This document shows positions 364-64,000 of a DNA stretch of 64,000 nt, piece after piece. The notes beneath the pieces were generated by a model. That model was not told where the DNA came from. It saw only the letters and a program-made list of their open reading frames with translations, and searched no databases. The first letter of the stretch is position 1, and each line of letters begins with the position of its first letter. This DNA is from a virus: the IMG/VR virus record IMGVR_UViG_3300042905_003268, positions 39,780 through 103,779 of that record. One strand, 5' to 3'. The position numbers were made by a program, and so were the translations under genes.

Positions 364-374
364 AAAATTCCTAT

Positions 375-1024: not shown

Positions 1025-1026
1025 TT

Positions 1027-1451: not shown

Positions 1452-1466
1452 TATTATACATCATAC

Positions 1467-2021: not shown

Positions 2022-2068
2022 ACTGACTCCGTACTATAATGGTTTTATTATACTAGATTGGATTATAA

Positions 2069-2641
2069 ATGCCTCACGAAAATAAAAGTTTTTATATGGT
2101 TAAAAATGCCATTCCTGCAGAAATGTCAAAACTTATTTACCAGTATGCCATTTTTGATCAAATAAAAACTGGTAGAGTGGGGGATCATCAAGTTCCTACG
2201 GCTCATGGTAAGTATGCAGATCCCCTAATGGAGTCTTTGCTTTTACTTGTTCAGCCTATTATTGAAAAAACAACAGGTCTTTCTCTATATCCAACATATG
2301 CTTATTATAGAATATATAGAAGAGGAGATATTCTAAAGCCACATTATGATCGTCCGTCCTGTGAAATATCTGCAAGTTTATGTATCGGACATAATTACGA
2401 AAATTATGAATGGCCCCTATTTGTTGATGACTCCAAAATAATATTAGAGCCTACAGATCTAGCAATTTATAAAGGTTTGGATTCGTTGCATTGGCGAGAT
2501 GAATTTTTAGGACCGCATAATGCTGTTCAAGTTCAAGCCTTTTTGCATTATGTGGACGAAAATGGTCCCTACCAGGAATACAAATACGATGGTCGTCCTG
2601 CGGTGGGATTTCCATCATCATCTAAAAGAATTATTGACTAA
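2069..2641 (+). CDS. 2OG-Fe(II) oxygenase (phage type)
   Basis: PTYAYYRIY...[13 protein letters not shown]...HWR...QAFLHYV. Confidence 0.75.
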
Positions 2642-7662: not shown

Positions 7663-8047
7663 TCCTCGTTATCTGAACTTCTATACTAGACATTTCTTTA
7701 TTAGTACTAATTGCCTTTGCAGTAACATCTACTACATACTCTCCATCAGAAGATATGTATAAATTTCCATATGCAAAATCTTCATCATAATCAAATTCTC
7801 CAGAGTCATTTAAAAATTTTATAGATTCTATAGCCCCAGGATTTTTTGAACCATCTGGAGTAGGTATTAAGTCTTCTACATCAGGATCTACTTCAATTTC
7901 ATCTGAATCACTAGATATCTGATCTTTATCTAATAAAGATTCAATAGCGTCTTCTATTGAAGCATCTGTATACTGTCTCGCTTCTGCAAGAATTTGCTTT
8001 CTTAGTATTTCTAAATCTACTGGGTTTTTTCTTGTAAAATCACTCAT
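7646..8047 (-). CDS. Hypothetical acidic protein in tail module
   Basis: ORF track; overlaps the neighbouring gene. Confidence 0.5.
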   Translation of the reverse strand: MSDFTRKNPVDLEILRKQILAEARQYTDASIEDAIESLLDKDQISSDSDEIEVDPDVEDLIPTPDGSKNPGAIESIKFLNDSGEFDYDEDFAYGNLYISSDGEYVVDVTAKAISTNKEMSSIEVQITRIDNAG

Positions 8048-8075
8048 ATGGCACCAATACTATTCTATCATTAAA

Positions 8076-8639
8076 TTATATATTTAGATCAAAAACTTTC
8101 TTTACTGGTTTTAAAATTATTTCCGTACTCAAGCCTTTATCAAATTTTTGTTTTATTGATGATACTATCCAGTATTGTGTTTCTGGGAATTCTACCTTAT
8201 ATGTTTTTATTTTAATTTTTGCTAGATCTCCTACCTGTATCAATGGGTTTGGGGAGATTTTTAAAGATAAATTTTTGTAGTACATATCATAGTATGCACT
8301 TATTATATACAGACAATAATTTGCAATTTCTTCATTTTGTATCCAAACTGATTCTACATCCAGTTGGGCGTCAAAGGAGCCAAGTTCAAGGTCTTCTGAA
8401 ACTTCATACGTTTCACCTTCAATAATTGTAGAACCCTTAACTATCAGACCTCCTCCAGATATGTTATTTGAAGATCCGGCACTTAAATAAATAGTCTGAT
8501 TGCTAGCATTTAATACTGCTATTCTAGCATCTTGAGGAGTTCCGGCAACTATACTAGTGGCTATAGCGTCCTCTGGAACTTCTACAATTTCTTCTATCAC
8601 AAGAATTTTATTGTATTTTTTATTTTTAGTTTTAGCCAT
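8076..8639 (-). CDS. Minor tail protein
   Basis: WIQ...NPLIQVGD...IKQKFD tail-hub-like C-terminal pattern. Confidence 0.5.
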   Translation of the reverse strand: MAKTKNKKYNKILVIEEIVEVPEDAIATSIVAGTPQDARIAVLNASNQTIYLSAGSSNNISGGGLIVKGSTIIEGETYEVSEDLELGSFDAQLDVESVWIQNEEIANYCLYIISAYYDMYYKNLSLKISPNPLIQVGDLAKIKIKTYKVEFPETQYWIVSSIKQKFDKGLSTEIILKPVKKVFDLNI

Positions 8640-11600: not shown

Positions 11601-12547
11601 AGGAATTCTCCAGGTCTATCTGGCGAAAAGATATTTTTTACTGGCATTATATCTGAACAATAAATCTCATATGGAGATACTTTAAAAGCAAAAATTTGAT
11701 CCACAAGAAGAGCGGCAACTTGTTCAGAATTAGTAGATATATCTATTCTTAATCTTACTTTATCTATATTAGAAGATAGTTTTGACTCATCTGGATTGGC
11801 AAAGTCTACAGATATAGTTTCCCAGTCTACTGCATTAACATTTATTCTTTTTGTAACTAGTTGAGTAAGAACTTCTTGATTATTCTTCATCCCGACCACA
11901 GTTAACACAACATCAAAATTTTCAGAATAACTACCTAATGGATTTTGTGATAATTGATAGTAGTAGTCAGACTTTAACATCATGTAAAATCTAACTCCAT
12001 CAGAAGCATTTGCATTATAATCTATATAATAAGAACTTTCTCCAACGGTTACAGATGCCCCTCTTACTGTTTTATCATTAATATTCTGTATAGAAGGATT
12101 ATTTGTAGTATAAACAATTTTACTTTTATCTGTTCCGGTTATAGTAGTAAACTTTCCATTAATATCATTAATATTTGTATCTACAAATATTTCTGATCCT
12201 ATTCCTATGTTATTTTTAATAGGAGATTTTGTTTTTAATGTAACTACTCCAGATTGAATACTTATATTATTAATAGTTATTGATTGTTCATCATAATCTG
12301 AAATTAATAATTTACAGTTAGTATCGGACCCTATTGATGTAGATATTCCTCTATTTACTGATTGTGGTGCGGGGGTAGATCCTGACGAATTTATAGTTGT
12401 TATTTCACTAAATGTTGGAGGAGATGCAGTACCGTACATATATGGATTTGATATTGCATTAGCATTCCACTCTGCAAAAATTCGTGGCTTTATGTCCAAG
12501 GAGTTGGACTTTGCGATATGCTCTCTTAAAGTGCTGTCTCCAAGCAT
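8639..12547 (-). CDS. Large minor tail (tail tip / hub) protein
   Basis: 1302 aa, second gene after the tape measure. Confidence 0.6.
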   Translation of the reverse strand: MLGDSTLREHIAKSNSLDIKPRIFAEWNANAISNPYMYGTASPPTFSEITTINSSGSTPAPQSVNRGISTSIGSDTNCKLLISDYDEQSITINNISIQSGVVTLKTKSPIKNNIGIGSEIFVDTNINDINGKFTTITGTDKSKIVYTTNNPSIQNINDKTVRGASVTVGESSYYIDYNANASDGVRFYMMLKSDYYYQLSQNPLGSYSENFDVVLTVVGMKNNQEVLTQLVTKRINVNAVDWETISVDFANPDESKLSSNIDKVRLRIDISTNSEQVAALLVDQIFAFKVSPYEIYCSDIMPVKNIFSPDRPGEFLLETGPVNVNLSSTETFPQQCTNVHMAMRWAITRRFSRIQRSVAPYAGNPNSYYVSGSSSDSKKFWCVYKKDFKTNNVVIKVNSIINKPSNFSIKAFINNAWTEIATHATASFNASGILRIYYNGTQWSSNQWAYNSYPKISSTNGDIDKYVSIKAIAIEINSLSYSSGNNEIRGGTSAFDLNYLDIIEISPRLSLDLSDYLIDFSINKEIADDSIPLPLGNLSSNSATINFSKIPIIISNPDLQTSETNDIVPISNYASIYVSGSEQSRSPLKDMLVRGVKLRGFFDIDTSLSGSGPANTKSSVPAFVMYSELWSESNNTIKVECYDIIKRLQSTLSRPLYLKGKTIQEVIYSILDSIGFSDYMSNELSDLRILKSFSNDNSENNLVNNLESINHYWSSKDNSAADSLNDIFKVYQISMFADETGAVRFTSLYDINRRLNNVSNEYVVNIQDFTDSNSTSNLASFLIDENERPSKITLRYKKPYPYYTQPKIGKKVKKTLSDSSGSLVKNTSKIVWEPEQEGLVLPYFELSAPGITSKSQKFIKFNIDNLKYINKTIDFNGYLLIDSEIVKYDGLEYIFTPVNISNNEINNSGESFKAIIKNREDLVSIISDATDRFGAKTIYYQPTGYLMNVERGVFGTIPDRHITVNANSPKDWSAKEFDSKYDNVSSLDKSDGKYSLSNGRISLISEKTNGGIIITPNKNNTVGSKRKLFMRYGLGNIPANKSGYLGAAIGVNIESGKIKDGLFIFTGTESKDKKTEVKLFIQEIVNGTINNIVPKGRMELDETLFEENEQIELYVNFNASRNSMRVYVGPTSIFQKIKKGKDKEEKKTEKIIDVGHEVKLKIDKDSTFGFVALEYGRGWLDDFAFTSKSDPRNLNNDNIDDIENDYSYDEKAGNLFYIGKNTLLNQIVYNRNIEFSINNPLNKDNFIWTGAPVARGLKILNIEFNDFPISGNATAKFLGYSYESNSVKINNDLRNSDTKDEF

Positions 12548-13014
12548 CAGATCTCCGTAAATTCAGCAGATACGTTCCAGTAATCAAAGTTCCGGTATCT
12601 CTTGATGACATCAAAACCGAAGTCAGTCCAATACACTTGACATGTCTCATCTACTGGGGCTTCTGCATTATTTCTTTTATATCTTAAAGTTAAAGTAAGT
12701 GGACTATAACAATATAATTCATAGTAAGCCTTCATTTTAGCAGCGTCAGCATTCCCGTCTGCCATCATTGTAGATACTGTAGGCATCATATCCCATGTAC
12801 ATGAAAAACCCTTTTTCTTAGAAATAATACTTTTTCTCATGGTTCCATCAGCCATTCTTTGAGAATTTTCTATTATTTCGTAGGAAACGCTAAGTGGCGA
12901 TCTTGAATGATCGGATAAAGTTAGTTGACCATTATTTGGTGTTGATGTAGAGAATTCAGAGGCGGCCTTACCATTGGCTTGAAGTCTAATAATTGATGGA
13001 ATTATAAATGTCAT
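12547..13014 (-). CDS. Distal-tail-like minor tail protein
   Basis: Directly follows the tape measure; RMADGTMRK...W...VSAEFTEI. Confidence 0.6.
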   Translation of the reverse strand: MTFIIPSIIRLQANGKAASEFSTSTPNNGQLTLSDHSRSPLSVSYEIIENSQRMADGTMRKSIISKKKGFSCTWDMMPTVSTMMADGNADAAKMKAYYELYCYSPLTLTLRYKRNNAEAPVDETCQVYWTDFGFDVIKRYRNFDYWNVSAEFTEI

Positions 13015-16000
13015 ACTCTAGTTACCGCCCCAACCATTCTTTCTTTTCTTTTAAGTGATTTCATTACGGCTTCTGCTATATCATCAGGAGATGAATTAGT
13101 CCCTGCTACGTTTACATTTATATTATACTCTACATTAGAAATTGGAGAGGAATCATTATTCATTCCAAACTTCCTGGAAAGCATTCCACCATCTCCCATT
13201 CTTTGGACATATCCAGGATACTTAGAAGAGAACATTCCTCCCATGGCTGCCTCTGGAAGTATACCCTTATTTACAGCATCCATAAAGTCTTTACCATAAT
13301 GACTTACAGCACTTGCATTCATTACATATTCGCCGTTGCTTATTAGTGCAAGAATATCGTCTGACGTTGGCCCACCCTTACCGTACACCTTCCCGCCCAT
13401 CTTAAATTTAGCAGTCGGTATTCCCATCCCAGCAATTGTTTCTGGTAAATATCTCTTTATTGCAGATCCGCCAGCACGCTGTCTGGCTCTATCCATTCCA
13501 GCGCCGTCAATTCCAGTAATTTGAGTTCCTAATGCTTCACTTCTAGCATGGAACATGCTTCCATTTCCTAGCGCCATGCCAACGTGATTAATTGGATTTG
13601 ATGTATTTACCCCATTTGGATAGTAGAAGAATAACAAGTCCCCAGGAAGCATATCGTTAACTCTTGATCCAGAACCACTTGAATATTGTGATGCAGATAA
13701 TGATGGGTGACCTGGGTCTACTCCAGCATAGGAATCATAGAGCCACTTAGTGGCAGTAGCGCATCCCCACCCGTTTGCTGGTCCATCTGCCCATGCTGCC
13801 CCAGATGAATATGGTGTTCCAACAAATCTTCTCGCATAGTCAGATATACCTTCTCCTAGTACAGTAAGATTTTCTTTACCTACTCTGACTAGTCCACCTT
13901 CAGCAAATTTAAATGGGGCAAGTCCTTCTCCAGTTTTTATAGAAACTAGATCCATTCCCAATGAGTCCTGAAGATACTTAAGTAATTGTTTATTCTCTGA
14001 AGACATAGAATCAATCTTAGATAGATCAAGTTGCCAGTAAGGTCCAACTCTTCTAAATCCAGATCCACTAAGCAATCTAGTTGGAGAAAGACCAATACTT
14101 TTAGCGTATCCAACTATCGAGTCATGATTATTTACAAAATCGTCGTGCTTTATTCTTCTAGGCATAAGAACATTTTCTGGGTCAAATGCTCTGTATGGTC
14201 TATCTGGAGAAATCTTTGTGTTTACTCCATGCTCAGTAACTACTTCTGCCCAGGCTGATTCTGGAATAAATTGTGCAAATTCGTCAGCCCAGCCAGTAGT
14301 TCCAAGAATCTGTGGCAAGTCTCCTACTGATATGTCTGTTGCCCAAATTCCTCTGCCAGCCCATCTTGAGAAAGATTTAGCAACATTTGGATCTGTTGTA
14401 GAGTATCCTCTAAAAACACCATGAACATTTGATTGTTCGCTTCTAGTTAATCCTCTATATAGTCTAATTAAATCTGTGTCTGAAAGTCCATAGTTTTGTC
14501 TTGCATATACAGAGTTTACTGATCTAATAAAGTCATGATCTAATAATGCTGTAGCCTTATCTGCAGATGTGCTAGTATCTTGTGCAGATATAGATGAATT
14601 CCTAACCTTTGACATAAACTCATCAAACGTCATGTCTCCGACTGCTGGGCTTCCAGATGCTGAAAGTTCATCGTAAATAGACTTAAATCTCTTTGCCTGA
14701 TTTGTGTCTCTAAGAATGTCTAGAACGCTCAATCCATGTTGATGCATTCTTGCTCCTGGATTTCCACCCATTGATGAACTATATGGTGGAGCATTGATTA
14801 CATCTAGTTTTCTTACATTTCCATTCTCGTCAAATATCTTTCCAATAAGGTCTGCTTTTTCTGCTGGAGTAATAGAAGGCCATGCAGTTTCTACATAATC
14901 CTCAAAGTCCTGTCTAGACATGCCTAGCATGTCTTCATAGTCCTTTGCTACAATATCTCTACTTGCTCTAGTTCCTGTGGCTCCAGCCTTTACACCTACT
15001 GGAATAAAACCGCTGGCCATGCTGCTGCTTCCCTTTCCGCCACCTGGGGCAAAGTCTAGCATGGAAGCAAGTAGTTCTGATCCTGAAGTATTTAGATAGT
15101 TGTCTCCACCAATAAGCGATCCGATAGAGGTTCTATTCCAATTTATTCTGTCTAAGAATGAATCTCCAGATCTTTCTGATCTCATAAATGGAGGAACAAA
15201 TCCCCCAAGTAGAAGGTCGGTTGTTGATGCTGCAATATTTCTTAATATTTGCCATATACCACCAACCTCTTCACCAATTCCTGGAGAGTAAAATGGTTGT
15301 CTAGTCATAGACATTATTGAAGCATTTCTTAATGCTTTATTGTATAGTCCCTTCATTACACCGCTGCCACCGCTCTGTCTTGTAGCCTGTGTATTTGAAT
15401 TACTATATCCACTAGTATATGTAGGTGTTCCACCAGAATATTGTGGTTTAGGCTTGTATCCACCAAGATACTTGTTACCGCTTGCTGCTGTTTCTGCACG
15501 GTCGGCAGAAACATATCCGCCAGTATAAAACTTTCTAGCATTAATTTGATCTAATAATTCTGTGCCATACTGACTAACACTAGAAGCCTTGATTACATAT
15601 TCTCCATCAGAAAGTAGAGCAGGAATTTTATCTTCTGTTGGACCGCCTGGACCGCTTACATATCCACCAGTAGCATACTGTGGCATAGTGGAGGTAAACA
15701 TTCCATCTGGAATTCCATCAAACACCCTCTGCCATAGTGATCTTGCCCCACCATCATAAATCTTTGGATTTCCAGTAATTTGGAAGGTATAGTTAGTTAA
15801 ATTAGTTTTAAGTATGTTATTAATTTCATCTACAGTTTCCTGCATTCTTGTGGTCATAGTGTTGTAGAAATTATCTGCAGCAGTCTTTACTTCTGCATCT
15901 ATTACACCACTTATTCCATTTGTTGGATCTGTAAATAATATTTTGTATGAATCTACTGCTGACTTAAATGTATCTGTTATTGTTGTAATAACGCCAGTTG

Positions 16001-19000
16001 CGGTGTCTGGAGGGATAACTAATCCATTGATAAGTCCAGCAATCATATCTTTGCCTAATAACTTATATACTTCTGAGGGAGAATTAGTTTTTGTTTCATC
16101 TCTCATCCATATTTCAAGCCACTTTATAGCCTGTCTAGTGGCAGCCTCTGTTGCCTGAACTCCATCAGTTAAACCTTTTTCTACTCCAAGCATCAGGTCA
16201 GATCCAATATTTTCTCCAGTAAGTTTTACTCCACCCGCATTAAATGTTGGACCAGTTTGTGCAGTACTTTGACCAGCAGCGGTTCTTGCCACCTCTTCTA
16301 ATCTATCTGCAGAAAGACCTAAATCAGATATTGTTGCGCCCTCAGACAATTGTTTGTTTATTTTTCTTAGTCTATCCTGCGCCTTAAGAATAATATCATT
16401 CCACTCAACCCATCTAGCAATTTCATCATCTATTCCCTTGCCATCAAAGTCCTCGCCGTACTGATCATATAGTTTCTTTGCTTTTCTATATGCTTCATCA
16501 GTTTCATATCCAAGATCATACAAGGCTCCGGCTATAACATCTATTTTTTCTTTAGGATTAAGTTCTTTATCCAGAAGTGCCCCGAAAACATCTGGCATTA
16601 CTTCTTTTAGATCTTCTCCTGCTACGCCCATCTTCTTCAATGAATCTTCTATAAACTTATAATCATCGGTTTGAGCAAACAGTTGATTATTGTTGTCTAT
16701 CCATGAATCATATAATTCATTTAATATTTGATCTATATTTTCTGCGGGTATATTTAACTTCTCTAGTTCTTGTCTATAAGACTTTACTCTATCACTATCG
16801 AAGAAGGCTGTCCATGGCCCCATTTGTGAAGTTCTTACTCTTAGTTCCGCACCCTCTGTCCAGTTAACAACTCCACTAGTTAGAACCTCTACCCTATTAG
16901 CAGTCCATTTCTGTTGTGCTGCTGAAGGACCAGTAGATCCCCCACCACCGCCGCCACCAGAAGAAGCATCTTGAAGTTTTTGAAGTCTTTCTTTTTCTTT
17001 TTCAGCGGCAGCAATTTTCTTATCTTCTCTTTCCTGCCTTCTTCTTTCAATCTCTTCTGCTTGATATTTTTCTTTTTCTGCATTTAATTGTGCCTGTAAA
17101 AGAGCCGCTTCCGCAAAATTGCCTTCTGCTGTTGCTCTGGCTATTTGATTTTCTAAGTCTTGTCTGCGTAGTGCAAAATCCACTTGCTTTTCTTGTAATT
17201 CAAGTAGTTTTTGACGCTCCTCACGTTCCTTTTGAATACCTTCAATTATCTTATCTTGTGCTTCAATAAGTTTGTCGTAGTAGTCTGATCCAGATCCTCC
17301 AGATCCTCCTCCAGCGTCACCTGAGTAATCTATGGCTCCTAATGCTGATTGAATTGCATCTTCTGGATTCGTCGCAGCCTGGGCGGTAGGAGTTGTTCCA
17401 ACTGGACTTCCTTGTATGAAAGAGGTCCAAACATTCGCTCTAAAGTTTGCAGGATTAGTTCTTGCCATATCAGCAAGTGCTGCCCAGTCTGTATTAACAT
17501 CAGCAATAACCATTGATACAATTCTTAATGCATCTTGAAGTTGAACTCCGCCTTCCATCATCATGGAGAATGCTCTACCAGCATCTGGAGACATTTCATT
17601 AATTTGTGTTTGTATTTCACCAATTAGTTGCTTATTACTATCTAAAGCATTTGCACTAGCGCCTAGTGAAGTTAAGAATTGATCAAATGTCTGCCCCCCA
17701 GAAGCCATGGCAGCAAATATTCCTTGAGCCATCATAGATGCTTCATTGCCAACAGCCCCCATAACGTCTTCTATTTCATATAAGTCTGGAGATATGGCAA
17801 CGACTTCTTTTAATGCTGGCAAGATATCAAGTATGAATTGATTAAATTCTGGTCCATATTGCTGACCATCTACAGAAAGCCCTTTCATAGCAGCATCTAC
17901 TGCTGGGTTACTTTCTGCTTCAGGATTAGTTATTCGTTCTTGAATTAATCCTAGCAGTTCTTCTAGAGTCATTCCAAATTGTTCTGCTATGCTATTGAGA
18001 TATACTGCAGTATCTGCTAAATTAGCCTGTTCACTTTCCCCAGTTTGAGGGTTAACTGCTAGTACTTCTTTCCCGCCTCTAGATTCTTCATACAACTGCT
18101 GTGCTTTTCTTAATCTATCTGCTTCTTTTTCAGTATAATCAGCACCCCTAATTACTCTATCAGCAATATCTTGTAATTGTGCTAGATACTTTGCTCCTAT
18201 TTCTTCTGGCTTTGTGCCAAGTTTTCCTATTCGATCTAACTCAGCATTTACAATTGGAGCAAATATTTCTTTACCAGTAGCAGATAAATAACCACCTATC
18301 ATGGTCTTAATGCTCTTTATATCCATGCCACCTAGAAGTGCTTCTGAAACCATCTTACTAAACATTGGATCATTAATAAATTGCTCTGCAGATTCCATAG
18401 ATGCAATTTGATCTCTTCTTCCAGCCTCAACACTTCCTGGCTCCGCGTTTGCTACAGCATTAGCAAACTCTCTTAACTTATTAGTAGCCTCTTGCGTTCT
18501 TAGATTAAATGCATTTAATGGTAAATCTTCTAATTGTTTTAACGGCTCTACATTAAAGAATTGTTTTTCTAGTTCTGTGAGTCCAGTCTTAGACGCTTCT
18601 ATTCCAGCCTTTAGTTTTGCAAGTTCTGCTGCTGCTTCTTCAGACCTTCTGCCAAAGAATGAAATTCCTTCTACAGCGACACCTATAGCAGCACCTATAG
18701 CAAGTCCCTTGGGTCCAAACATTGCGCCCATGCCAGTCATATTTGCTATATTTATTCCAGCATTCATTGCTTGCCCAGCCCCAGTATCTTCTCCAGGACG
18801 AGGTAGGAACATCGCAGCCATACTTGCAAGGCTTATTGCTCCTCCCAACTTGCCTCCCGCAAGCATTCCTCCTTTGTTAGAAGATATTGCTGCAGTTTGC
18901 CCTTCTCTTGCTACAGTTCCTTTATTAGTAGAATCACTATTTCTTTGGGTAGAAACAATATTTTCTGTAACTTCCAGAGATTGTCTTTCTCTTAATGCTG

Positions 19001-56263: not shown

Positions 56264-56631
56264 TTCTCATAAATGGAAGATATCTTATCATTTTTGATAA
56301 CTATACCATTTGCCGTTATAAAACTGTTATATTTTAATTTGATGAAAATGTTAATGGCTTGCTAATTTGGATGATACACTTTCTTGGTAGCGCAAAATCG
56401 GACAAATAGTGCGCCCATACATATTATGTCCGTGTCAAGTTATTTCGTGGAATATTTACCAAATCTTTACAATTGTATGCCCGTTTTGCCTGAATATTTT
56501 TCGTACGTTTTCGAACAATTGTTCGGTGATCTAGATCACACGATTCTTGATAGACATATCGGACAGTAAGCGTTTCCAATGTCAGACCCCCATGTCAGAC
56601 TAGATACATGAGCAAGAGAGAGGAGGTGACC

Positions 56632-56775
56632 ATGAGAATCACCAAGGCTACCGTCCGTAGCATCGTCAAGAATGCGCGATGCAACGACTGTGGAGAAAAG
56701 CACTACGCTGCAATGGCTATCGTCAATGACGATATCCTGTGCGCTAACTGTCATCAGGCTAAGGCTTTCGCCTGA
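56632..56775 (+). CDS. Small zinc-ribbon protein (47 aa)
   Basis: AGGAGG RBS; CNDC...CANC. Confidence 0.6.
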   Translation: MRITKATVRSIVKNARCNDCGEKHYAAMAIVNDDILCANCHQAKAFA

Positions 56776-56881
56776 CTGTCAGACCCTCATGGTAGGGTGT
56801 ACCTATAACTGAATATTCCTAGGCAAATAAGCCCCATGAGGGATGAGCCCTAGGCCACACCGTAAGAAAGAAAGGTAAGAA

Positions 56882-57142
56882 ATGATTAGCACTACTCCCA
56901 TCAGGACTCCTAAGAGTCCCGCACCCGCTTGCCGTTGCAGCGAGTGCATCCTTGATCCCTTCAACTCGCATGGGATCTACATGATCGGAGCCTACAAGGT
57001 TCCGTCAGTCCTTTCGCTCCGTGGTGGGCGAGTCACTAAGCCTCAGGTTGCATGGGAGTGCGTTAGCACCATCAGCCAGGGTCGAATGACTGAGGTGTTC
57101 CCCTTCGCTCAGTCTGATGAGGATCGGAGGTGGCTTATCTAA
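56882..57142 (+). CDS. Hypothetical protein
   Basis: GAAAGG RBS; CRCSEC. Confidence 0.55.
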   Translation: MISTTPIRTPKSPAPACRCSECILDPFNSHGIYMIGAYKVPSVLSLRGGRVTKPQVAWECVSTISQGRMTEVFPFAQSDEDRRWLI

Positions 57143-57312
57143 TGAACGCATCACCATACCGTGGCATTGCGCCACGACAGAGTACAGCGCAACGTGCGCG
57201 GCGTGCATTGGTTGCTCGCATTGGTCACGATGCTGCAGCACAACAGGATGCAGATCGCATCGACTACTACCGTGCGCTCATCGCGCAGGCCAAGGCCCAA
57301 AAAAGCCTTTAG
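57142..57312 (+). CDS. Hypothetical protein
   Basis: TAATG overlap; GGAGG RBS. Confidence 0.55.
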   Translation: MNASPYRGIAPRQSTAQRARRALVARIGHDAAAQQDADRIDYYRALIAQAKAQKSL

Positions 57313-57366
57313 ATATAAGGGTTTTTCAGACACCTAAAAAAGCCTTATAAAATAAGGGTTTTTGGA

Positions 57367-57413
57367 GCGCGGCTAAGATCTTGTCCGCGCCAGCGGACAT
57401 GTCAAGTTACGAC
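57367..57413. repeat. Composite element copy 1 (24-bp palindrome + GTCAAGTTACGAC)
   Basis: GCGCGGCTAAGATCTTGTCCGCGC. Confidence 0.9.
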
Positions 57414-57533
57414 ACATTAAAAACTCCTTGGAAAATTTCCTGGAAAAATTGTTTTTAAATTTTTTTGAAAATGTCCAATTTGTATGCATTCTGGATTTGA
57501 CCATTGTCAGTCCCCTAGTGTAGAGTCGGAGAC

Positions 57534-57650
57534 ATGAGAAAGACACCATGCACAGGGATTCATAAGTCCACTATCGCTTCCGGCCTCTCCTTCTGGTGCG
57601 CTGGTTGTGGAGAGTGGAACGTCGTCAACGGAAAGGCGGTCAGGGCATGA
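57534..57650 (+). CDS. 38-aa Cys-containing peptide (leaderless)
   Basis: ATG 7 nt after TAGAGT; ATGA overlap with the next gene. Confidence 0.5.
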   Translation: MRKTPCTGIHKSTIASGLSFWCAGCGEWNVVNGKAVRA

Positions 57651-57928
57651 TCGATTCAGTAGATCGTATCGTCACCACTCCAATGCGAGAGTGTCCTCCA
57701 TTTGTAGAGGGCATCCTTGGAGAGAATGACAGGGGCTTGCTCCATACTAGGTGGTTCATCATCGAACCGCTAGAGGATGACTGGTTCCTTGTGACCGACA
57801 CGCAGGGCAATGCCATGCAATCGCGTGGCTCTGCTATGGTAAAGTGGCTCAAGCCTGAAGACAAGAATGACCCTGTAATCCAAGCAGAACTGATCACAGG
57901 ACTGGCTTCTATGGGATTGGAATTCTAG
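57647..57928 (+). CDS. Hypothetical protein
   Basis: ORF track, start MIDSV. Confidence 0.55.
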   Translation: MIDSVDRIVTTPMRECPPFVEGILGENDRGLLHTRWFIIEPLEDDWFLVTDTQGNAMQSRGSAMVKWLKPEDKNDPVIQAELITGLASMGLEF

Positions 57929-58016
57929 TGTTCCGCAAATGCGCTAACTGTGGCAGGCTTCTACTGTCAGACACCCGTGGTAACTTTGGATCATGCACAT
58001 GCGAGAGGGAGGAATC

Positions 58017-58103
58017 ATGAGGACATTCGCACAGCATGTCTTGTCATTCGTCATCATTAGCGGTATCCTTACTGCTATGGCTATCGTAGGAGGAATGGAA
58101 TGA
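58017..58103 (+). CDS. 28-aa membrane peptide
   Basis: GGAGG RBS; single hydrophobic helix; ATGA overlap. Confidence 0.45.
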   Translation: MRTFAQHVLSFVIISGILTAMAIVGGME

Positions 58104-58375
58104 TTACCCGCGCAGAAACAGTCGGGAAGCACTATCTAGTCAATGCTCGCGCATCTATCTCGCATCCAATGGCCGATGAGGTTTCTATCGCCATGGGTTC
58201 GGGAGCCTATGCACGCTTCCCGCATTCTGTCGAACTTGCATTCTTCAAGAATGGGGATTGGGTAACTGAGCCTCTGCCAGAGTTGGCAGACTACTACTCG
58301 CATGAGGTCTACCCGTATGTTTCTCTGATCGAATTTGCAATGTTCATGGAGAACTTTGGGACGGGGGGAGAGTGA
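58100..58375 (+). CDS. Hypothetical protein
   Basis: AGGAGG RBS. Confidence 0.6.
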   Translation: MITRAETVGKHYLVNARASISHPMADEVSIAMGSGAYARFPHSVELAFFKNGDWVTEPLPELADYYSHEVYPYVSLIEFAMFMENFGTGGE

Positions 58376-58376
58376 C

Positions 58377-58565
58377 ATGTTTCGTCTATCCATCATAGAT
58401 AGCGAAAGTGGTTACACTTTCGAATGGAATGGTTCGCACACCGTAGAGATTCGTTCTGCTAGTGGTAAGGTATTCGATGTGTTTTCGTTTGGCATGACTG
58501 AAAAGGGAACGCGACCTACATTCGTAGAGTTTGCTGCGGCTGCTGAAAGGTGGTTGTCGGAATGA
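58377..58565 (+). CDS. Hypothetical protein
   Basis: MFRLSIIDSESG...; packed operon. Confidence 0.55.
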   Translation: MFRLSIIDSESGYTFEWNGSHTVEIRSASGKVFDVFSFGMTEKGTRPTFVEFAAAAERWLSE

Positions 58566-58756
58566 AAATAGCAGAACGCCGTCCATTCGATATCAATATG
58601 ACAATGCAATGGAATGACATACAGGAATTGCTCACACGATGCAAGCGCATGTGGGCATGTGCTGAGAATCCTGGCGACTTCGAAACTTTGGAAGAACTGG
58701 AGAAGGCTCTACACATTCTTGCGGAGAATATTCGAACTAGACTTGACAAATCTTAG
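58562..58756 (+). CDS. Hypothetical protein
   Basis: ATGA overlap. Confidence 0.55.
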   Translation: MKIAERRPFDINMTMQWNDIQELLTRCKRMWACAENPGDFETLEELEKALHILAENIRTRLDKS

Positions 58757-58757
58757 A

Positions 58758-58804
58758 GCGCGGACAAGATCTTAGCCGCGCCAGGAGCGGTGTCAAGTTA
58801 CGAC
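58758..58804. repeat. Composite element copy 2 (core is the exact reverse complement of copy 1)
   Basis: GCGCGGACAAGATCTTAGCCGCGC + GTCAAGTTACGAC. Confidence 0.9.
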
Positions 58805-58864
58805 GATAAGAAATTTTCCCTGGAATTTCTTGTCATTGTCGGAGGGGTATGCTAGGATTTTTCC

Positions 58865-59011
58865 ATGATCAAGAATCGCAAGCGCACCCGTGATGAAATT
58901 CAGCGTACCTTGGAATTGCGTCGGAGTAATATCGCGCAACCCCATCGGAATAAGGCTAAGTATTCTCGTAAGCCTAAGCATCGTGATCGTTTCGTTATCG
59001 AAAATGACTGA
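58865..59011 (+). CDS. 48-aa very basic peptide with ArfA-like tail
   Basis: Leaderless; PHRNKAKYSRKPKH. Confidence 0.55.
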   Translation: MIKNRKRTRDEIQRTLELRRSNIAQPHRNKAKYSRKPKHRDRFVIEND

Positions 59012-59053
59012 TTCCCTCTTCCCAATGTCGGACCCTAGTGCTAGGATCATTTC

Positions 59054-59611
59054 ATGATTACAGTTACCGCCCCTGAGGGCACAGTCGCATTTGCTACCTA
59101 CGCCGCTCGCTTTGAGAGCCTTATCATGACCGCCACCCTCGCGCAGATGGAGCAAGCAGCCGTCTGGTATCGTGACGCGGAGGAAGTTGCGGAGGAGGTT
59201 GCTCGCAACCTTGACACTACCCTAGAGGTAGGCGCATCCATCGTCGCAGCATTCTCGCCGCGTGAGCGTTGGTCCACTAACGTCGCTAAGGCTATCGCAT
59301 TCTCGCTCGGTCAGACCCCTAAGGGATTGGGCAATAATCTTCGCATGGCGGAGGCTTCTATCCTCATGGGATTCGATGCGCTCAAGGGTGCCAAGACTAA
59401 TGCATTCGCTCGCGCTATTGCAGGCGACGCTAACGCTGTCGTCATCGACGTTTGGATGATGCGAGCCGCTGGCATGGATACCGACTCTCCTAATAAGTCT
59501 CAGTACGCGCTACTTTCGGAGGCTGTCGTGGCTGTCGCGCAGCAATTCGGAATCACCCCGCGCACCGCGCAGGCTCTTATCTGGATTATCGTGCGAGGGG
59601 GTGCAGCATGA
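59054..59611 (+). CDS. Conserved phage protein (DUF7178-like, possibly HhH-glycosylase fold)
   Basis: WY...AAFSPRERW..N...K...F...IDVWMMR...QALIW. Confidence 0.55.
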   Translation: MITVTAPEGTVAFATYAARFESLIMTATLAQMEQAAVWYRDAEEVAEEVARNLDTTLEVGASIVAAFSPRERWSTNVAKAIAFSLGQTPKGLGNNLRMAEASILMGFDALKGAKTNAFARAIAGDANAVVIDVWMMRAAGMDTDSPNKSQYALLSEAVVAVAQQFGITPRTAQALIWIIVRGGAA

Positions 59612-59766
59612 CATACTTTGCAATGGATGGAAACTATGGAAGCGCACACGGCCTAGTTGTCATTGACACTAGCGGGTGGACTGATAAAGATTGGGATAGG
59701 GTAGAGAGTGCAACCGATGATGATAGGTTCATCGTCGCGGTCGTTATTGCGGAGGAATACTCATGA
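59608..59766 (+). CDS. Hypothetical protein (52 aa)
   Basis: Own translation MTYFAMDGNYG...; ATGA overlaps. Confidence 0.55.
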   Translation: MTYFAMDGNYGSAHGLVVIDTSGWTDKDWDRVESATDDDRFIVAVVIAEEYS

Positions 59767-59821
59767 ACGATATCACGCTAGAGAACTTTCGGGAGATGCT
59801 GCGCGATTTTGTGGGGGTGTG

Positions 59822-59926
59822 ATGACTGACGCTATCGCATGGCTCTCAGTATTGGGTGCGGCTGTAGTATTTCTAGCACCGTTTGCCGTAGTGTATTTTA
59901 TCGTCACCGCTTTTTGGAAAAGGTAG
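59822..59926 (+). CDS. 34-aa membrane peptide
   Basis: Hydrophobic helix ending WKR. Confidence 0.45.
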   Translation: MTDAIAWLSVLGAAVVFLAPFAVVYFIVTAFWKR

Positions 59927-59930
59927 CCGA

Positions 59931-59998
59931 CAGGGTTGCGTGTGCAACCCTGCGCGGCCAAGATCTTGTCCGCGCCCTGCGCGGTGTCAAGTTACGAC
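59931..59998. repeat. Composite element copy 3 with upstream CAGGGTTGC hairpin
   Basis: CAGGGTTGC-GTGT-GCAACCCTG, then GCGCGGCCAAGATCTTGTCCGCGC and GTCAAGTTACGAC. Confidence 0.9.
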
Positions 59999-60121
59999 AC
60001 ACCGTATTTTTCCCCAGAATTTGTGATCTATACCACATAGAATATGACCGATAATCGGATTTCGATTGGGTGAATGTCAGACCCCCATGATAGCCTTAGG
60101 GCATAGAAAGAAAGGCTAGTA

Positions 60122-60310
60122 ATGAACAACACTCTCCATTCCCACCTCGTTTGCTGCTTTTGCGACAACGAGATTGACCTCGATGCCAAGTGGTGCGGCC
60201 TTTGCCGTGAATACAAGGGCATCATGACCGTGGAAGCCTTTGAGGACTACCTCAAGGTTGCCTATGATTGCAATTGCTTGTCAGACCTAGATGATAGGAT
60301 CTCAGCATGA
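60122..60310 (+). CDS. Small zinc-binding protein
   Basis: CCFC...CGLCREYKG; GAAAGG RBS. Confidence 0.6.
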   Translation: MNNTLHSHLVCCFCDNEIDLDAKWCGLCREYKGIMTVEAFEDYLKVAYDCNCLSDLDDRISA

Positions 60311-60834
60311 ACCTAGAAGAACTATACGAGAATTTCCTCCGTTTGGAGGCCACCCTTGACCTTGACCCCAACCCTTGGGTGTCAGACCCTGATGATAAGG
60401 TGAAGCCATGACAACATACAAGGTGTTCGTAGATGGAGAGTTCTTTTCCACGGTCGCCACCCGCGAGGGTGCTGAGACTATCCGAGACTTTTGGGCATCA
60501 CCCCGTCAGACCGTTGAGATTGTGGAGGTGGGAGCATGACCACAGTAGAGTTTGAGAAGGCATGGCTAGATAACTACTACATGCTTGGCGACCATGCATT
60601 CGACTATGCGCGGTGCATGTATCTGGACGACGGCACTCTGATTGTCGATGGGGTGCGCTATGAGGAGGTGCCTTTCTAATGCAGAATATCTACAAGGTCT
60701 ACTACGGTGGACAGTACATGTGTTCATTCTTTGAGCGTGATGCTGCGCTCAACTGGATTGTCGATCTCGCTGCTGAAGGCGAGGGGGATTTCGGAGACTA
60801 CGAGATTCTGGATGGGAGTGATTTTCCTGCTTAG
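60307..60834 (+). CDS. Run of four tiny overlapping ORFs (60307-60411, 60408-60539, 60536-60679, 60679-60834)
   Basis: Own translation; ATGA/TAATG coupling, with leaderless or GGAGG-led starts. Confidence 0.55.
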
Positions 60835-60962
60835 GTCCCGACGCAATGTTGGCAAGCACCGCCTGCGGTGCTACTTCGGGTGCTGCTTGTCAGTCCCCTC
60901 CGATAAGATGGAACGTAGAATCATCAAGCGCAAGGAAGCGCGTGAATGGAAGAAGGATCAGA

Positions 60963-61172
60963 ATGTGGCAGGATAGTGCAGCGTGCAAGGATGCGGACAG
61001 CAACCTGTTTCTCTCAGGTGTTGCCTCGCGCATCGAAAAGGCTAAGTCGATTTGTGCAACGTGCAGCGTTGTGCAGGATTGCCTCGCATTTGCAATTCGC
61101 AACGAGGATTTTGAGCCGCATGTCTATGGTGGCATGACGGGTGTAGAGCGTAAGAGATTGGCGGGTGTGTGA
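60963..61172 (+). CDS. whiB: WhiB-family Fe-S transcription regulator
   Basis: WQDSAAC...AKSICATCSVVQDC...VYGGMT..ER. Confidence 0.85.
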   Translation: MWQDSAACKDADSNLFLSGVASRIEKAKSICATCSVVQDCLAFAIRNEDFEPHVYGGMTGVERKRLAGV

Positions 61173-61436
61173 TGGTAAAGGTAGAGATGCCTCGCGCAGA
61201 TTGGGATGCAGTCCTAACGTGTCTGCGGGAACTGATGGATCAGGGATGGATCGTGAAGTCCCTCTACAATGACATTATCGACCAAGTAGACGAACAGGAG
61301 TACTGATATGAGTTACCTTGACTACCTTCCCGCCGATGGCAATTTCTCAGAGGATGAACTGTGGGAGGCCATCGCAGAAGATTTGGGAGTCGATCCCTCA
61401 GAGATCATGGATGGGGATTTGGTGGATTTTATCTAG
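61172..61436 (+). CDS. Two small acidic ORFs (61172-61306, 61308-61436)
   Basis: Own translation; coupled start/stop and AGGAG RBS. Confidence 0.5.
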
Positions 61437-61443
61437 TTGTCGC

Positions 61444-61513
61444 CAGGGTTGCGAGTGCAACCCTGCGCGGCCAAGATCTTGTCCGCGTAAAAAAAATAAA
61501 AATAGTTTACGAC
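61444..61513. repeat. Composite element copy 4 with CAGGGTTGC hairpin
   Basis: Near-identical to copy 3 through the palindrome; TTTACGAC box. Confidence 0.85.
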
Positions 61514-61518
61514 GAGGC

Positions 61519-61547
61519 TTGACAGCCCCTGGAATTTCTGATAGGTT
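61519..61547 (+). promoter_or_regulatory. Sigma-A-type promoter TTGACA-17-TAGGTT
   Basis: Consensus -35 and spacing. Confidence 0.6.
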
Positions 61548-61571
61548 TGGCTCATCAACCTAGGAGGAAAA

Positions 61572-61706
61572 ATGGCTCGCTGTGAAGACTACCCGTGCTG
61601 CGGTCACACCGACGGCCTTGGCTGCAACTACAACCCTGGCGATTACTACTGGCGTAAGGTAATGTCTCCTGACTATGACCCCTACTATGATGAAGGGGAG
61701 TACTGA
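61572..61706 (+). CDS. 44-aa Cys/Tyr-rich peptide
   Basis: AGGAGG RBS; MARCEDYPCCGH. Confidence 0.6.
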   Translation: MARCEDYPCCGHTDGLGCNYNPGDYYWRKVMSPDYDPYYDEGEY

Positions 61707-61707
61707 G

Positions 61708-61754
61708 GGGCGGGTAAGTTCTTAGCCGCGCAATAAAATCTAGTCAATTACGAC
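61708..61754. repeat. Composite element copy 5 (degenerate)
   Basis: GGGCGGGTAAGTTCTTAGCCGCGC + GTCAATTACGAC. Confidence 0.75.
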
Positions 61755-61845
61755 GATTAAGAAATTTCTCCAGAATTCCCAGAATTTTTCCTTGTGGCTG
61801 TCATACCCCTAGGCTATAGTAGTACTACAACAGAAAAGAGGGAAC

Positions 61846-62046
61846 ATGATTGCTACTATCCGTACTCCCTCCCGCTCATCCACGGGCGCGGGGGTATTTG
61901 AAGCAATCAAGCATGGCGTAGAGTATGATGTATATGATGATACCCATTTCGATATCACGATTCATAATCAGACCCGCGCAAACTTGATTGCGAAAGCGGC
62001 AAATGGTAAGATTGTTGCCGTAGTTGATGCACTTCCCGTTTACTAG
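61846..62046 (+). CDS. Hypothetical protein
   Basis: ORF track; GAGGG RBS. Confidence 0.55.
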   Translation: MIATIRTPSRSSTGAGVFEAIKHGVEYDVYDDTHFDITIHNQTRANLIAKAANGKIVAVVDALPVY

Positions 62047-62061
62047 TAGAAGGAGAAAATA

Positions 62062-62223
62062 ATGGCAAGCAAGAAGAGCAAGACCCCTAAGTTCACCTAC
62101 CTTGAGACCTGGAATACCCGTTATGGTGTCCAGACTCGTATTGTCACTCGTCAGAATGGCAAGTTCATTGACTCCACCCCCGCGTTGGAGACATTGAAGC
62201 ACGGCATCCCTGCTGGTCGATAG
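62062..62223 (+). CDS. Small basic hypothetical protein
   Basis: AAGGAG RBS; MASKKSKTPKF. Confidence 0.55.
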   Translation: MASKKSKTPKFTYLETWNTRYGVQTRIVTRQNGKFIDSTPALETLKHGIPAGR

Positions 62224-62263
62224 TAGGAAGATCCTGGGTATGATCGCTAAAACTGCCCATCTA

Positions 62264-62344
62264 GCCCGAGTGGTGGAATTGGCAGACACGCACGACTCAA
62301 AATCGTGTTCCATTGGAGTGTGGGTTCAAGTCCCACCTTGGGCA
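62264..62344 (+). tRNA. tRNA-Leu(CAA)
   Basis: GCCCGAG/CTTGGGC acceptor stem, CACGA-CTCAAAA-TCGTG anticodon arm, variable arm, GGTTCAAGTCC; no encoded CCA. Confidence 0.92.
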
Positions 62345-62347
62345 CTA

Positions 62348-62437
62348 GGTGGGGGTATGTGACCCGCTATCACACCTTGTTTGGCGAATGGAAGGTGGGA
62401 TTCCTTCCTAAGATAGCATCGACTCACTCCCCCACCG
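62348..62437 (+). ncRNA. Candidate structured RNA
   Basis: Nested stems GGTGGGGG/CCCCCACC, GTGA/TCAC, GCTATC/GATAGC, GGAAGG/CCTTCC. Confidence 0.45.
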
Positions 62438-62504
62438 ACTAAAGTCTTGACGGCGGTCAGGGCTTATGCTACGATTCTACTACCTACTACAGAAAGAGAC
62501 CGAT

Positions 62505-62894
62505 ATGGGAGACCGCGCTAACTTTGGAATCCGTCAGAATGACGGCAACATCATCTTCATCTACGGACATTGGGCAGGCGAGGGTATGCTTGCTAAGTTT
62601 GCTAATGCTCTTGACCATGTTCAGAATGTTGGTCGTATTGACGACCAGGCTTATGCAAATCGCATCATCATCTCGCAGTTGGTTGGCGAGTCTTGGTCTG
62701 GCGATCTTGGCTGGGGTGTTACTGTGAACTACCTCGCAGACAACGAGCATAAGGTTCCTGTGTATGACTTTGCACTCCGCGAGGTAACTCTCTATGACTA
62801 TGATTGGAAGTCGGGAGTTCTGACTGATATCATTGTCACGTTCTCGCTGAACGAGTTCATCAACAAGTACGCCAAGACCTTGATGGAGGTCTGA
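62505..62894 (+). CDS. Conserved phage hypothetical protein
   Basis: MGDRANFG...IYGHWAG. Confidence 0.6.
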   Translation: MGDRANFGIRQNDGNIIFIYGHWAGEGMLAKFANALDHVQNVGRIDDQAYANRIIISQLVGESWSGDLGWGVTVNYLADNEHKVPVYDFALREVTLYDYDWKSGVLTDIIVTFSLNEFINKYAKTLMEV

Positions 62895-62895
62895 A

Positions 62896-63318
62896 ATGAT
62901 TGATCCTAGTATGACTGACATTCATCCATTCCCGCCCACGATGCAGGAGTTGGAGCAGAGGTACCGCGATCTTGAGAAGAAACTTGCCGATATGGAGTGT
63001 GACCGCGATTTCTGGCGGGGCAAGGCTCATGAGAAGCAGTCTATGATTGACAACCTTGAGGAATACATCAAGGATCAGTTTGACTACATCGATGAGAATG
63101 TATCTCAGAGCATTGTCGAAATCTTTGGTCTTAATATCACCAAGGACTACGATGTGACAGTTACCGTCACATTCTCTGGTACTGTTAGTGTTCCTCTGAA
63201 CTACGACATGGATAACCTTGAGAATGATCTGAATGCCAGTCTTGAGGCAACATACTACAGCGATATAGAGTCTGATTTCTCAGAGGATCGTATGGATATC
63301 GACTGGACAGAGAGTTAG
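62896..63318 (+). CDS. Hypothetical protein (coiled coil, acidic)
   Basis: GGAGG RBS. Confidence 0.6.
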   Translation: MIDPSMTDIHPFPPTMQELEQRYRDLEKKLADMECDRDFWRGKAHEKQSMIDNLEEYIKDQFDYIDENVSQSIVEIFGLNITKDYDVTVTVTFSGTVSVPLNYDMDNLENDLNASLEATYYSDIESDFSEDRMDIDWTES

Positions 63319-63350
63319 GCAGCGGTGGTATCCTAACTACGCCTCCGCCC

Positions 63351-63387
63351 TGCAGACCTGAGCATGTCTTGCATAATAAACTGCTCA
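63351..63387 (+). ncRNA. Candidate H-type pseudoknot just 5' of tRNA-Glu
   Basis: TGCAGAC/GTCTTGCA stem; loop TGAGCA pairs with downstream TGCTCA. Confidence 0.45.
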
Positions 63388-63390
63388 CAC

Positions 63391-63463
63391 GCCCCCATCA
63401 TCTAGTGGCCTAGGATACTGCCCTTTCAAGGCAGCGGCGCGGGTTCGAATCCCGTTGGGGGTA
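63391..63463 (+). tRNA. tRNA-Glu(TTC)
   Basis: GCCCCCA/TGGGGGT acceptor stem, CTGCC-CTTTCAA-GGCAG, GGTTCGAATCC; no encoded CCA. Confidence 0.92.
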
Positions 63464-63465
63464 CT

Positions 63466-63512
63466 CCGCGTGCAAGATCTTGGCCGCGCCAGCGGCATAA
63501 GTCAATTACGAC
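63466..63512. repeat. Composite element copy 6
   Basis: CCGCGTGCAAGATCTTGGCCGCGC + GTCAATTACGAC. Confidence 0.85.
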
Positions 63513-63612
63513 GGAAGGATATTTTCCCCAGATTTTTTAGAAATATCCTTGCCCAATGTCAGTCCCAGGGTGTATAGTTCTTCTATAAGTTCAATCAACT
63601 AAGGAGATACAT

Positions 63613-64000
63613 ATGGCACACGCAGTAGAGATTGGCGCTAACGGAGAGCAGGCTTTTGCTTCCTTCCGCGAACCCGCTTGGCATGGTCTTGGCACCGTGT
63701 TCTTTGAGGAGAAGTCCACCCAGGAGATGCTGGATGCGGCCTACCTGTCCAACTGGAACGTTCGCCTTGAGGCCGTTCCTTACCCTTCCGACTACAATGT
63801 GATCACGCCTTCCTACATGGTACTGCGTGACAACCCCTTTGACCAGGGTACTGACGTTCTCGCTACCGTTGGTGAGCGTTACCACGTTCTTCAGAACGAG
63901 GATCTTTTCGACTTTGGCGATGCGCTGCTTGACGGTGGTCGCTGGGAGACTGCTGGCTCTATTCGTCAGGGTCGCGTTGTGTTCGGTTCGCTTGCGCTTG
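63613..64000 (+). CDS. DUF932-family protein (runs off the window edge)
   Basis: Own translation MAH...REPAWHGLGT...VGERY.VLQN...WETAGS..GR.VF; AAGGAG RBS. Confidence 0.8.
   Translation, partial: MAHAVEIGANGEQAFASFREPAWHGLGTVFFEEKSTQEMLDAAYLSNWNVRLEAVPYPSDYNVITPSYMVLRDNPFDQGTDVLATVGERYHVLQNEDLFDFGDALLDGGRWETAGSIRQGRVVFGSLAL

Follow-up and report, generated by a model that had tools for sequence, protein, structure and literature searches.

A repeated palindromic module at the cassette boundaries of an early-gene array in an uncultured actinobacterial siphovirus

What is the role of a short palindrome that recurs between the small genes of a phage early region? The question is raised by a stretch of 64,000 nucleotides (nt), here called the window, which covers positions 39780-103779 of the 103,779-nt IMG/VR record IMGVR_UViG_3300042905_003268; the phage of this record is labelled G000. 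An earlier note on this DNA had described a composite element, consisting of a 24-nt imperfect palindrome followed by a TTACGAC box, in six copies that partition the region into gene cassettes. The explanation favoured here, with somewhat better than even confidence, is a regulatory boundary module of a hyperplastic early-gene array, similar to the promoter-early stem-loop (PeSL) cassettes of T4-type myoviruses (Arbiol et al., 2010, PMC2839356; Comeau et al., 2014, PMC4122927) and doubling as a joint for homologous recombination. Throughout, the function of the element at the level of transcription was read from geometry and conservation.

Scanning the window with the 24-nt pattern recovered all six palindromes, at 57367, 58758 and 59952 without mismatch, at 61465 with one and at 61708 and 63466 with two each. 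There was no further match in the 64 kb, none was expected by chance and none of 100 shuffled sequences contained any. The count of six stands for the window; the array as a whole has eight copies, as the window cuts it and a motif scan of the record revealed two more at record positions 329 and 3686. L160, an independent metagenome contig of 14,035 nt obtained from a different sample, extends from record position 94981 past the record end into record 1-4129 and carries exactly eight copies. It bridges the end of the record to its start through 477 missing nucleotides, located inside an open reading frame (ORF) for a 331-aa DUF932 protein. Since L160 joins the record ends, the genome is essentially complete and closes on itself, and the array forms one stretch of about 11 kb. 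The record is listed as 84% complete and linear; positions 4029-5024 of L160 nevertheless close the circle. The copies of the window and one relic are the following (window coordinates; the relatives L161 and L157 are described below).

57367..57446, + strand: composite element copy 1, with the palindrome at 57367-57390, TGTCAA at 57400-57405, TTACGAC at 57407-57413 and two TTCCnGGAA-like boxes at 57425-57446
58758..58826, + strand: composite element copy 2, left breakpoint of the cassette absent in L161
59952..60020, + strand: composite element copy 3, at which the L161 deletion has its right breakpoint; also a partner of the junction in L157
61465..61547, + strand: composite element copy 4, without TGTCAA and with TTACGAC 25 nt past the palindrome; ends in a canonical TTGACA-N17-TAGGTT at 61519-61547
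61708..61789, + strand: composite element copy 5, with centre AAGTTCTT and an antisense TTGACT-17 nt-TAAGAA at 61719-61747
63466..63534, + strand: composite element copy 6, right after tRNA-Glu (63391-63464), with an antisense TTGACT-17 nt-CAAGAT at 63477-63505
56433..56460, + strand: relic right half (TGTCAAGTTA...TGGAAT) without palindrome, at the start of the GC-rich array (read directly)

Each copy is intergenic and closes a block, as had been noted: the palindrome lies 2 nt past a stop codon (58758, 61708) or comes after a terminator-like hairpin (57367, 59952, 61465) or the 3' end of a tRNA (63466). TTACGAC, always on the + strand, indeed ends 23 nt past the palindrome in five copies and 25 nt past it in the copy at 61465. 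An alignment of 28 copies from seven phage lineages (G000/G001, G003, G006, G008, G009, G010 and G011) showed that the conserved word is shorter than the proposed palindrome with GCGCGG and CCGCGC arms, namely GCGG-nn-AAGATCTT-nn-CCGC, with centre columns invariant or nearly so (at least 90%). The parts come in the following order: a hairpin of variable sequence or a tRNA comes first, followed by this word, by TGTCAA 9-11 nt further on and by one to four TTACG boxes. In the phage of the record, an A/T tract and one or more TTCCnGGAA boxes come next, and a forward promoter lies 20-110 nt beyond the TTACG/TTCCnGGAA boxes. The module is retained across the seven lineages though the genes of the cassettes almost all differ, the gene content of the G000, G003 and G006 arrays being nearly non-overlapping. 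It is the only sequence that different cassettes have in common.

The partition of the region into shuffled cassettes was confirmed in relatives, where cassettes are lost and permuted at the element and the junctions coincide with the module. One case is L161 (86-90% identical), which lacks exactly record 98583-99731, that is, the cassette between the copies at 58758 and 59952:

58865..59926, + strand: cassette B, encoding a 48-aa basic protein, a DUF7178 protein and three small ORFs; missing en bloc in L161

L161 has at this place a single hybrid element, made of the palindrome of copy 2 and the spacer, TGTCAAG and TTACGAC of copy 3. In L157, the copy-1 element is joined directly to cassette C. 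L102 and L035 (about 90% identical) display the cassette orders B-C-D and C-B, respectively, with junctions at TGTCAAG and at the TGTCAGACCCC box. A tRNA cassette present in L102 is missing from L158 and L165, where the junction falls in the 22-nt promoter box. Around copy 1, G000 and G001/L160 share about 99% identity except for a swapped patch of about 40 nt, which comprises the palindrome and spacer only. The cassettes of the 66-aa protein and of DUF932 stand in reversed order in G000 and G006. Within this phage group, the array is where contigs repeatedly break off, as expected of a region that varies in the population. The joints of the array are in this way mapped to the nucleotide in natural populations.

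Loss and reordering of cassettes at an imperfect palindrome located at their ends could also point to a site-specific recombination site (an integron-like attC or an inversion site) served by a dedicated recombinase. Moreover, the palindrome cores occur in both orientations, those of copies 1 and 2 being exact reverse complements. However, a six-frame search of the record, which is short of only about 0.5 kb, gave no match to Phage_integrase (PF00589) or Resolvase (PF00239), extending to the near-complete genome the absence of a recombinase already noticed in the window. The crossovers are scattered as well: they fall in the right arm and spacer in L161, at TGTCAAG and the TGTCAG box in L102/L035, and in the promoter box in L158. 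Finally, each cassette is self-promoted. Flip-flop of the palindrome core was tried as a signal and dropped, as the three pairs seen, set against about 0.4 expected with four variable positions by the author's own estimate, were judged to be about at chance level and not clearly above it. A dedicated site-specific system is thus very improbable.

The same observations speak against the integron-like array suggested in the earlier note. As with integron attC sites, imperfect palindromes stand at the 3' ends of cassettes, and cassettes are gained, lost and reordered. Integrons hold mostly promoterless cassettes served by one common promoter and have a fixed crossover, whereas here no IntI-type integrase was found, the cassettes have their own promoters, the crossover point varies and there is no R/L box pattern. 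Homologous exchange between modules is indicated instead, because crossover points vary, no recombinase was found, and RecA and RuvC are encoded by the phage. Judged from these comparisons, the shuffling is to be regarded as homologous recombination at the regulatory module and not as integron-type.

If the palindrome were an RNA signal, selection on its stem would be expected. The arms were paired in 73.3% of cells, compared with 74.3% in column shuffles, and the covariation score was 0.097, compared with 0.103. Two of the ten arm pairs are mostly unpaired (pair 4/25 in 19 and pair 9/20 in 17 of 27 copies). As the arms do not covary, the palindrome is not a selected RNA stem. In most copies the fold of minimum energy uses other pairings (z-scores from -5.5 to -0.5). 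No palindrome was called by a terminator scan and none is followed by a U-tract, so that neither the compensatory stem changes nor the U-tract typical of intrinsic terminators was found. Most copies have, immediately to their left, either the 3' end of a tRNA or a stable hairpin that is distinct, unrelated in sequence and often capped by a UUCG loop. These are read as the ends of the preceding units and the palindrome as a signal at the level of DNA. The hairpins next to copies 1, 3 and 4 are listed here.

57300..57363, no strand assigned: two tandem A-run/hairpin/T-run terminators closing the upstream unit, just left of copy 1
59932..59951, + strand: GC hairpin AGGGTTGC-GTGT-GCAACCCT, abutting copy 3
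61445..61464, + strand: GC hairpin abutting copy 4

An intrinsic terminator, or an RNA hairpin that ends or stabilises the upstream transcript, would account for a palindrome that closes each cassette at its 3' end. The palindrome can fold into a GC stem with a GATC loop, variant copies retain the arms while the centre changes, and the stem-loops of T4-type PeSLs terminate without a canonical U-tract (PMC2839356). On the other side stand the results just described (the open pairs, the lack of covariation, U-tract and scan call, and the competing folds), the presence of separate, stronger hairpins immediately upstream and a loop that is invariant, which is unexpected for a terminator. This explanation is considered improbable. 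A plain terminator with breakpoints unrelated to it, the outcome that the earlier note had held to be fatal to its proposal, fails on both sides, as terminator traits are lacking and breakpoints lie inside the module.

The palindrome and its flanks have a promoter-like geometry. On the antisense strand, an exact TTGACA lies 16-17 nt from yAAGAT in 20 of 27 copies, drawn from seven phages, and TTGACT takes its place in three more. The sense strand has an exact TTGACA in 8 of the 27 copies and at least four of six matching bases in 16. The background for such a -35 match is 0.3% at 6/6 and 12% at 4/6 or better. Spacers of 16 and of 17 nt are both present and their sequences are unrelated, as promoters would show. 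In a neutral consensus scan the antisense site of copy 2 (58796-58769) ranked first in the region.

57378..57405, - strand: predicted antisense sigma-A-type promoter of copy 1, TTGACA-16 nt-CAAGAT
58743..58770, + strand: sense TTGACA-16 nt-CAAGAT, which uses the palindrome centre of copy 2
58769..58796, - strand: antisense TTGACA-16 nt-TAAGAT of copy 2, top site of the neutral scan (10/12)
59963..59990, - strand: antisense TTGACA-16 nt-CAAGAT of copy 3

Each strand of the palindrome centre carries a -10-like hexamer; the two share 2 nt, and the predicted starts are therefore about 15 nt apart, a spacing that falls inside the range of 7-25 nt by which bidirectional bacterial promoters have been defined (PMC10268837). 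In the part of that article that recounts Warman et al. (2021), such promoters arise from the symmetry of the -10 element and have a modal start distance of 18. Compared with this account, the element likewise has -10-like hexamers on opposite strands in one short symmetric core; it differs in the 2-nt overlap with about 15 nt between starts instead of the modal 18, in the possibility of a perfect -35 on both sides and in the conserved GC arms around the core. In many copies the right arm can pair with the spacer, giving a stem-loop between -35 and -10. The module is thus probably a bidirectional sigma-A core promoter embedded in an operator-like palindrome.

The operator-like character follows from an excess of conservation. 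It is suggested that a dimeric protein also reads the palindromic word, because AAGATCTT and the arms are more constrained than a -10 requires and the forward -10 hexamers of the record's phage vary freely. Could the element be a pure operator array, by which a dimeric regulator of phage or host switches the early cassettes, with the TTGACA flanks and the recombination being incidental? Centre and GCGG/CCGC arms are conserved without covariation; positions 3-4 and 7-8, which are free in a dual TAnnnT, are fixed; the distance from palindrome to TGTCAA is constant; and many conserved copies lie in early intergenic DNA, as in an operator array. In phiC31, conserved inverted repeats serve as repressor operators in the early region, and cluster A mycobacteriophages have stoperators, all in temperate phages with a known repressor. 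Like these, the element is a short, nearly identical intergenic site present many times in the early region of an actinophage, near promoters and near terminators without U-tract. The sequence is different, and with neither HTH_3 nor WYL protein and no integrase or resolvase found in six frames, neither a cognate repressor nor a temperate lifestyle is indicated.

Several results do not fit a pure operator array. The searches gave no candidate for the regulator, the distance from the element to the forward promoters (20-110 nt) is too variable to suit activation or repression by contact, the 20 of 27 copies with an exact TTGACA at 16-17 nt are left without account, and true copies are lacking in host genomes. 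For the latter, the palindrome with GTCAA was scanned against 185,579 bacterial genomes; of the 32 matches none is a true element copy. About 29 of them stem from the coding motif GAGKIFSAGGNVKEM in a crotonase-like gene of Actinomycetota, mostly Mycobacteriales, and the lead of a host operator was abandoned as a codon coincidence. A pure operator array is hence rather unlikely as the whole explanation; it competes in part with the favoured explanation and could be correct to some extent. A role as insulator or regulator site, the former also raised in the earlier note, is plausible from the sequence arrangement.

The predicted structure of a unit, a site followed by a promoter and small genes, holds in the sense that every cassette has its own promoter, and a promoter was found downstream of each of the six copies. 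These forward promoters, predicted from sequence, mostly have the form tGTCrG-N10-TAnnnT and otherwise the canonical form TTGACA-N17-TAnnnT.

57505..57526, + strand: PafBC-type promoter, ATG 7 nt past the -10 (leaderless)
58837..58858, + strand: PafBC-type promoter, ATG 6 nt past the -10
60075..60096, + strand: PafBC-type promoter of cassette C (WhiB at 60963-61172)
61799..61820, + strand: promoter TGTCAT-N10-TATAGT
63557..63578, + strand: PafBC-type promoter of the DUF932 gene (63613 onward)

The first form matches exactly the geometry of the PafBC motif of mycobacteria, tGTCgg(N10)tA(N3)T, which has no -35 box (PMC8635444). Twelve such sites lie on the + strand in the array (window 56777-63578 and record 3328), compared with three scattered over the other 92 kb. 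In 6 of 11 forward promoters the ATG follows the -10 by 6-7 nt, similar to leaderless actinobacterial mRNAs. The likeness to these 'sigma adaptation' promoters concerns the promoters neighbouring the element, not the palindrome, and differs in that the sites are serial and located in a phage genome without WYL protein. As a six-frame search of the phage revealed no WYL protein, the putative PafBC-type promoters would rely on the PafBC of the host. The possibility that TGTCAA is itself a PafBC -26 box with its own -10 ten nucleotides further on was rejected, as no TAnnnT is found there. Between window positions 62345 and 62475, G000 and G001/L160 differ in the tRNA-Leu allele, in a 96-nt insert and in the next promoter, which is a canonical TTGACG-N17-TACGAT in G000 and a PafBC-type TGTCAGACCC box in the relative, a switch of promoter type at a single site.

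TTACGA occurs past TGTCAA once or twice in the phage of the record and up to four times in G006, G008 and G011. In G000, yrGAAT follows TTACGA after exactly 17 nt (once 16) at ten + strand sites and is part of the TTCCnGGAA-like inverted box; in G003, TCACGGGAAT is found at the equivalent spacing.

How far does the element agree with PeSLs? In both cases sigma-70-type boxes are repeated between genes, with a GC-rich inverted repeat between or over -35 and -10; in PeSLs the stem-loop is most commonly located between the boxes (PMC2839356). In both cases the modules lie upstream of small ORFans in a hyperplastic region, all eight copies here being in the 11-kb GC-rich array, and indels, replacements and reordering break in the motif (L161, L157, L158/L165, L102 and L035, G000 and G001/L160). 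The differences are also clear. The phage is not a T4-type myovirus but an actinobacterial siphovirus, with a portal nearest to that of Stanwilliamsviridae. The exact -35 boxes mostly face backward (antisense in 20 and sense in 8 of 27 copies), and the genes have a separate promoter downstream, usually of PafBC type. The inverted repeat is invariant in sequence and does not covary, and TTACGA and TTCCnGGAA boxes are additional. Promoter and terminator activity in reporter assays and excised mini-circles are traits of the PeSL class, while the present element is known from sequence alone.

In the explanation favoured above, the yAAGAT of the palindrome centre on both strands, together with TTGACA 16-17 nt away, would constitute a sigma-A-type core promoter that faces chiefly back into the preceding cassette on the antisense strand, and in one third of copies forwards too. 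The invariant, non-covarying arms and centre would probably dock a dimeric regulator able to switch all modules together. Module and adjacent hairpins would insulate each self-promoted cassette. As the comparison of relatives showed, the module is also the joint at which cassettes are deleted, inserted, swapped and reordered by homologous recombination. A more specific version is put forward tentatively: each boundary may be a switchable two-faced promoter, with a sigma-A core in an operator palindrome producing antisense RNA backward and sometimes RNA forward, while the sense genes need the host DNA-damage activator PafBC. If so, the phage would set the balance of sense and antisense transcription of about ten early cassettes by one regulator and a damage signal of the host, and the cassettes could be exchanged between phages as ready-wired units.

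Some observations weigh against the favoured explanation. The best -35 points away from the genes, unlike in PeSLs, and an antisense RNA started at copy 1 would run into two bidirectional terminators within a short distance. In four variant copies (G003 43095, 44171 and 45824; L102 near 7420) the GCGG..CCGC arms and TGTCAAG are kept and the AAGATCTT centre is lost; since TGTCAAG is retained in these copies, it is not merely the -35 of a AAGATCTT -10. Some mosaic boundaries are located elsewhere, e.g. at the 3' end of tRNA-Leu. The fixed TTACGA-N17-yrGAAT spacing lies outside the explanation and may represent another promoter. Searching most ORFs of the near-complete genome with Pfam revealed no HTH_3, WYL or other DNA-binding family but two WhiB. 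The supposed regulator thus has no candidate, as the Pfam scans show only WhiB; a small protein not recognised by Pfam is possible. Finally, promoter, operator and insulator activities are all deduced ones.

The shuffling of cassettes at repeated promoter/stem-loop modules is already known as a concept. The present array takes PeSL-style modularity beyond the T4-type phages, with their Gram-negative hosts, into a large uncultured siphovirus of actinobacteria. It would also offer a compact regulatory unit, in which an operator-like word over a bidirectional core is combined with consensus promoters that face antisense and with forward promoters resembling the PafBC 'sigma adaptation' ones. If these forward promoters are real, early genes are tied to the DNA-damage activator of the host.

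The position of the array in the genome raises a last alternative. The array genes all lie on the + strand. They are preceded by a ThyX operon, and at the end of the array a cluster of DnaA boxes faces the bulk of the genome, which is on the minus strand. The copies could be landing sites for a protein in DNA entry, a role also considered in the earlier note, or in replication, e.g. an injection-pause or origin-associated array. The array adjoins a cluster of DnaA boxes in G000, G006 and G003, and in the closest cultured relatives the physical genome end coincides with the end of the homologous arm. Against this, the copies extend over 11 kb, each cassette having one, and their positions follow the gene starts and not the origin, and the cultured relative Muntaha lacks the element; no tie to entry was found. 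Such a role is very improbable. A hairpin promoter of the N4 type for an injected RNA polymerase was rejected too, because the 3054-aa protein is the tape measure and no giant protein resembling a polymerase was found. In the DnaA-box region itself (record 3764-4208, L023), nine boxes (TTATCCACA and variants) are interleaved with three TTACGA-N17-CAGAAT where the directions of transcription converge. In G006 and G003 the DnaA boxes likewise adjoin an element copy.

The phage is an uncultured actinobacterial siphovirus, as marked by the 3054-aa tape measure (PhageMin_Tail, NlpC/P60) and the WhiB genes. It encodes two WhiB, DUF7178 and DUF932 proteins, DNA polymerase III alpha, DnaB and primase besides RecA and RuvC. 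Its portal is 58-59% identical to that of Streptomyces phages of Stanwilliamsviridae, a distant relationship, and the nearest of these by portal, Streptomyces phage Muntaha, has neither the palindrome nor PafBC-type boxes. Neither megablast nor blastn of the region or the module against 50,697 phage records gave any match. Most array ORFs had no Pfam match, and the Rfam search returned two tRNAs only. The G+C content is about 50% in the 11-kb early array (window 56500-64000 in part) and about 37% in the rest of the record, and the same two levels are displayed by the relatives G003 and G006. A chimeric assembly was rejected as the source of this split, because independent contigs of other samples cross both junctions. 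One idea for the high G+C of the array is an escape from Lsr2-type silencing of AT-rich DNA.

Some minor observations concern short words and single genes. A Dam or restriction account of AGATCT/GATC was not retained, as outside the copies both words are about as frequent as expected. The whole record lacks CCGCGG and GCGCGC, with about 5-7 expected in each compartment, which may reflect restriction-site avoidance. A 124-aa protein (record 2415-2789; L023:2415-2786) is kept in G003, G006, G009 and G010, always near the last element copy. It gave no relative in PDB or Atlas and no significant Pfam match; on visual inspection, the N-terminal part (…GERGRFTAEMMTAL…) is similar to the Lsr2 DNA-binding motif, and its tail is rich in Cys and His. 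The very basic 48-aa protein of cassette B (window 58865-59011) shows a weak DUF7230 match. In G000 and G006 it is the first gene past an element; G003 has it too, and it belongs to the very few array genes that G000, G003 and G006 have in common. The second WhiB gene is located in the minus-strand part (record 4222-19000, L119), beside several 2OG-Fe(II) oxygenases, a pyrimidine-dimer glycosylase, a dCMP deaminase and a PNKP-like phosphatase.

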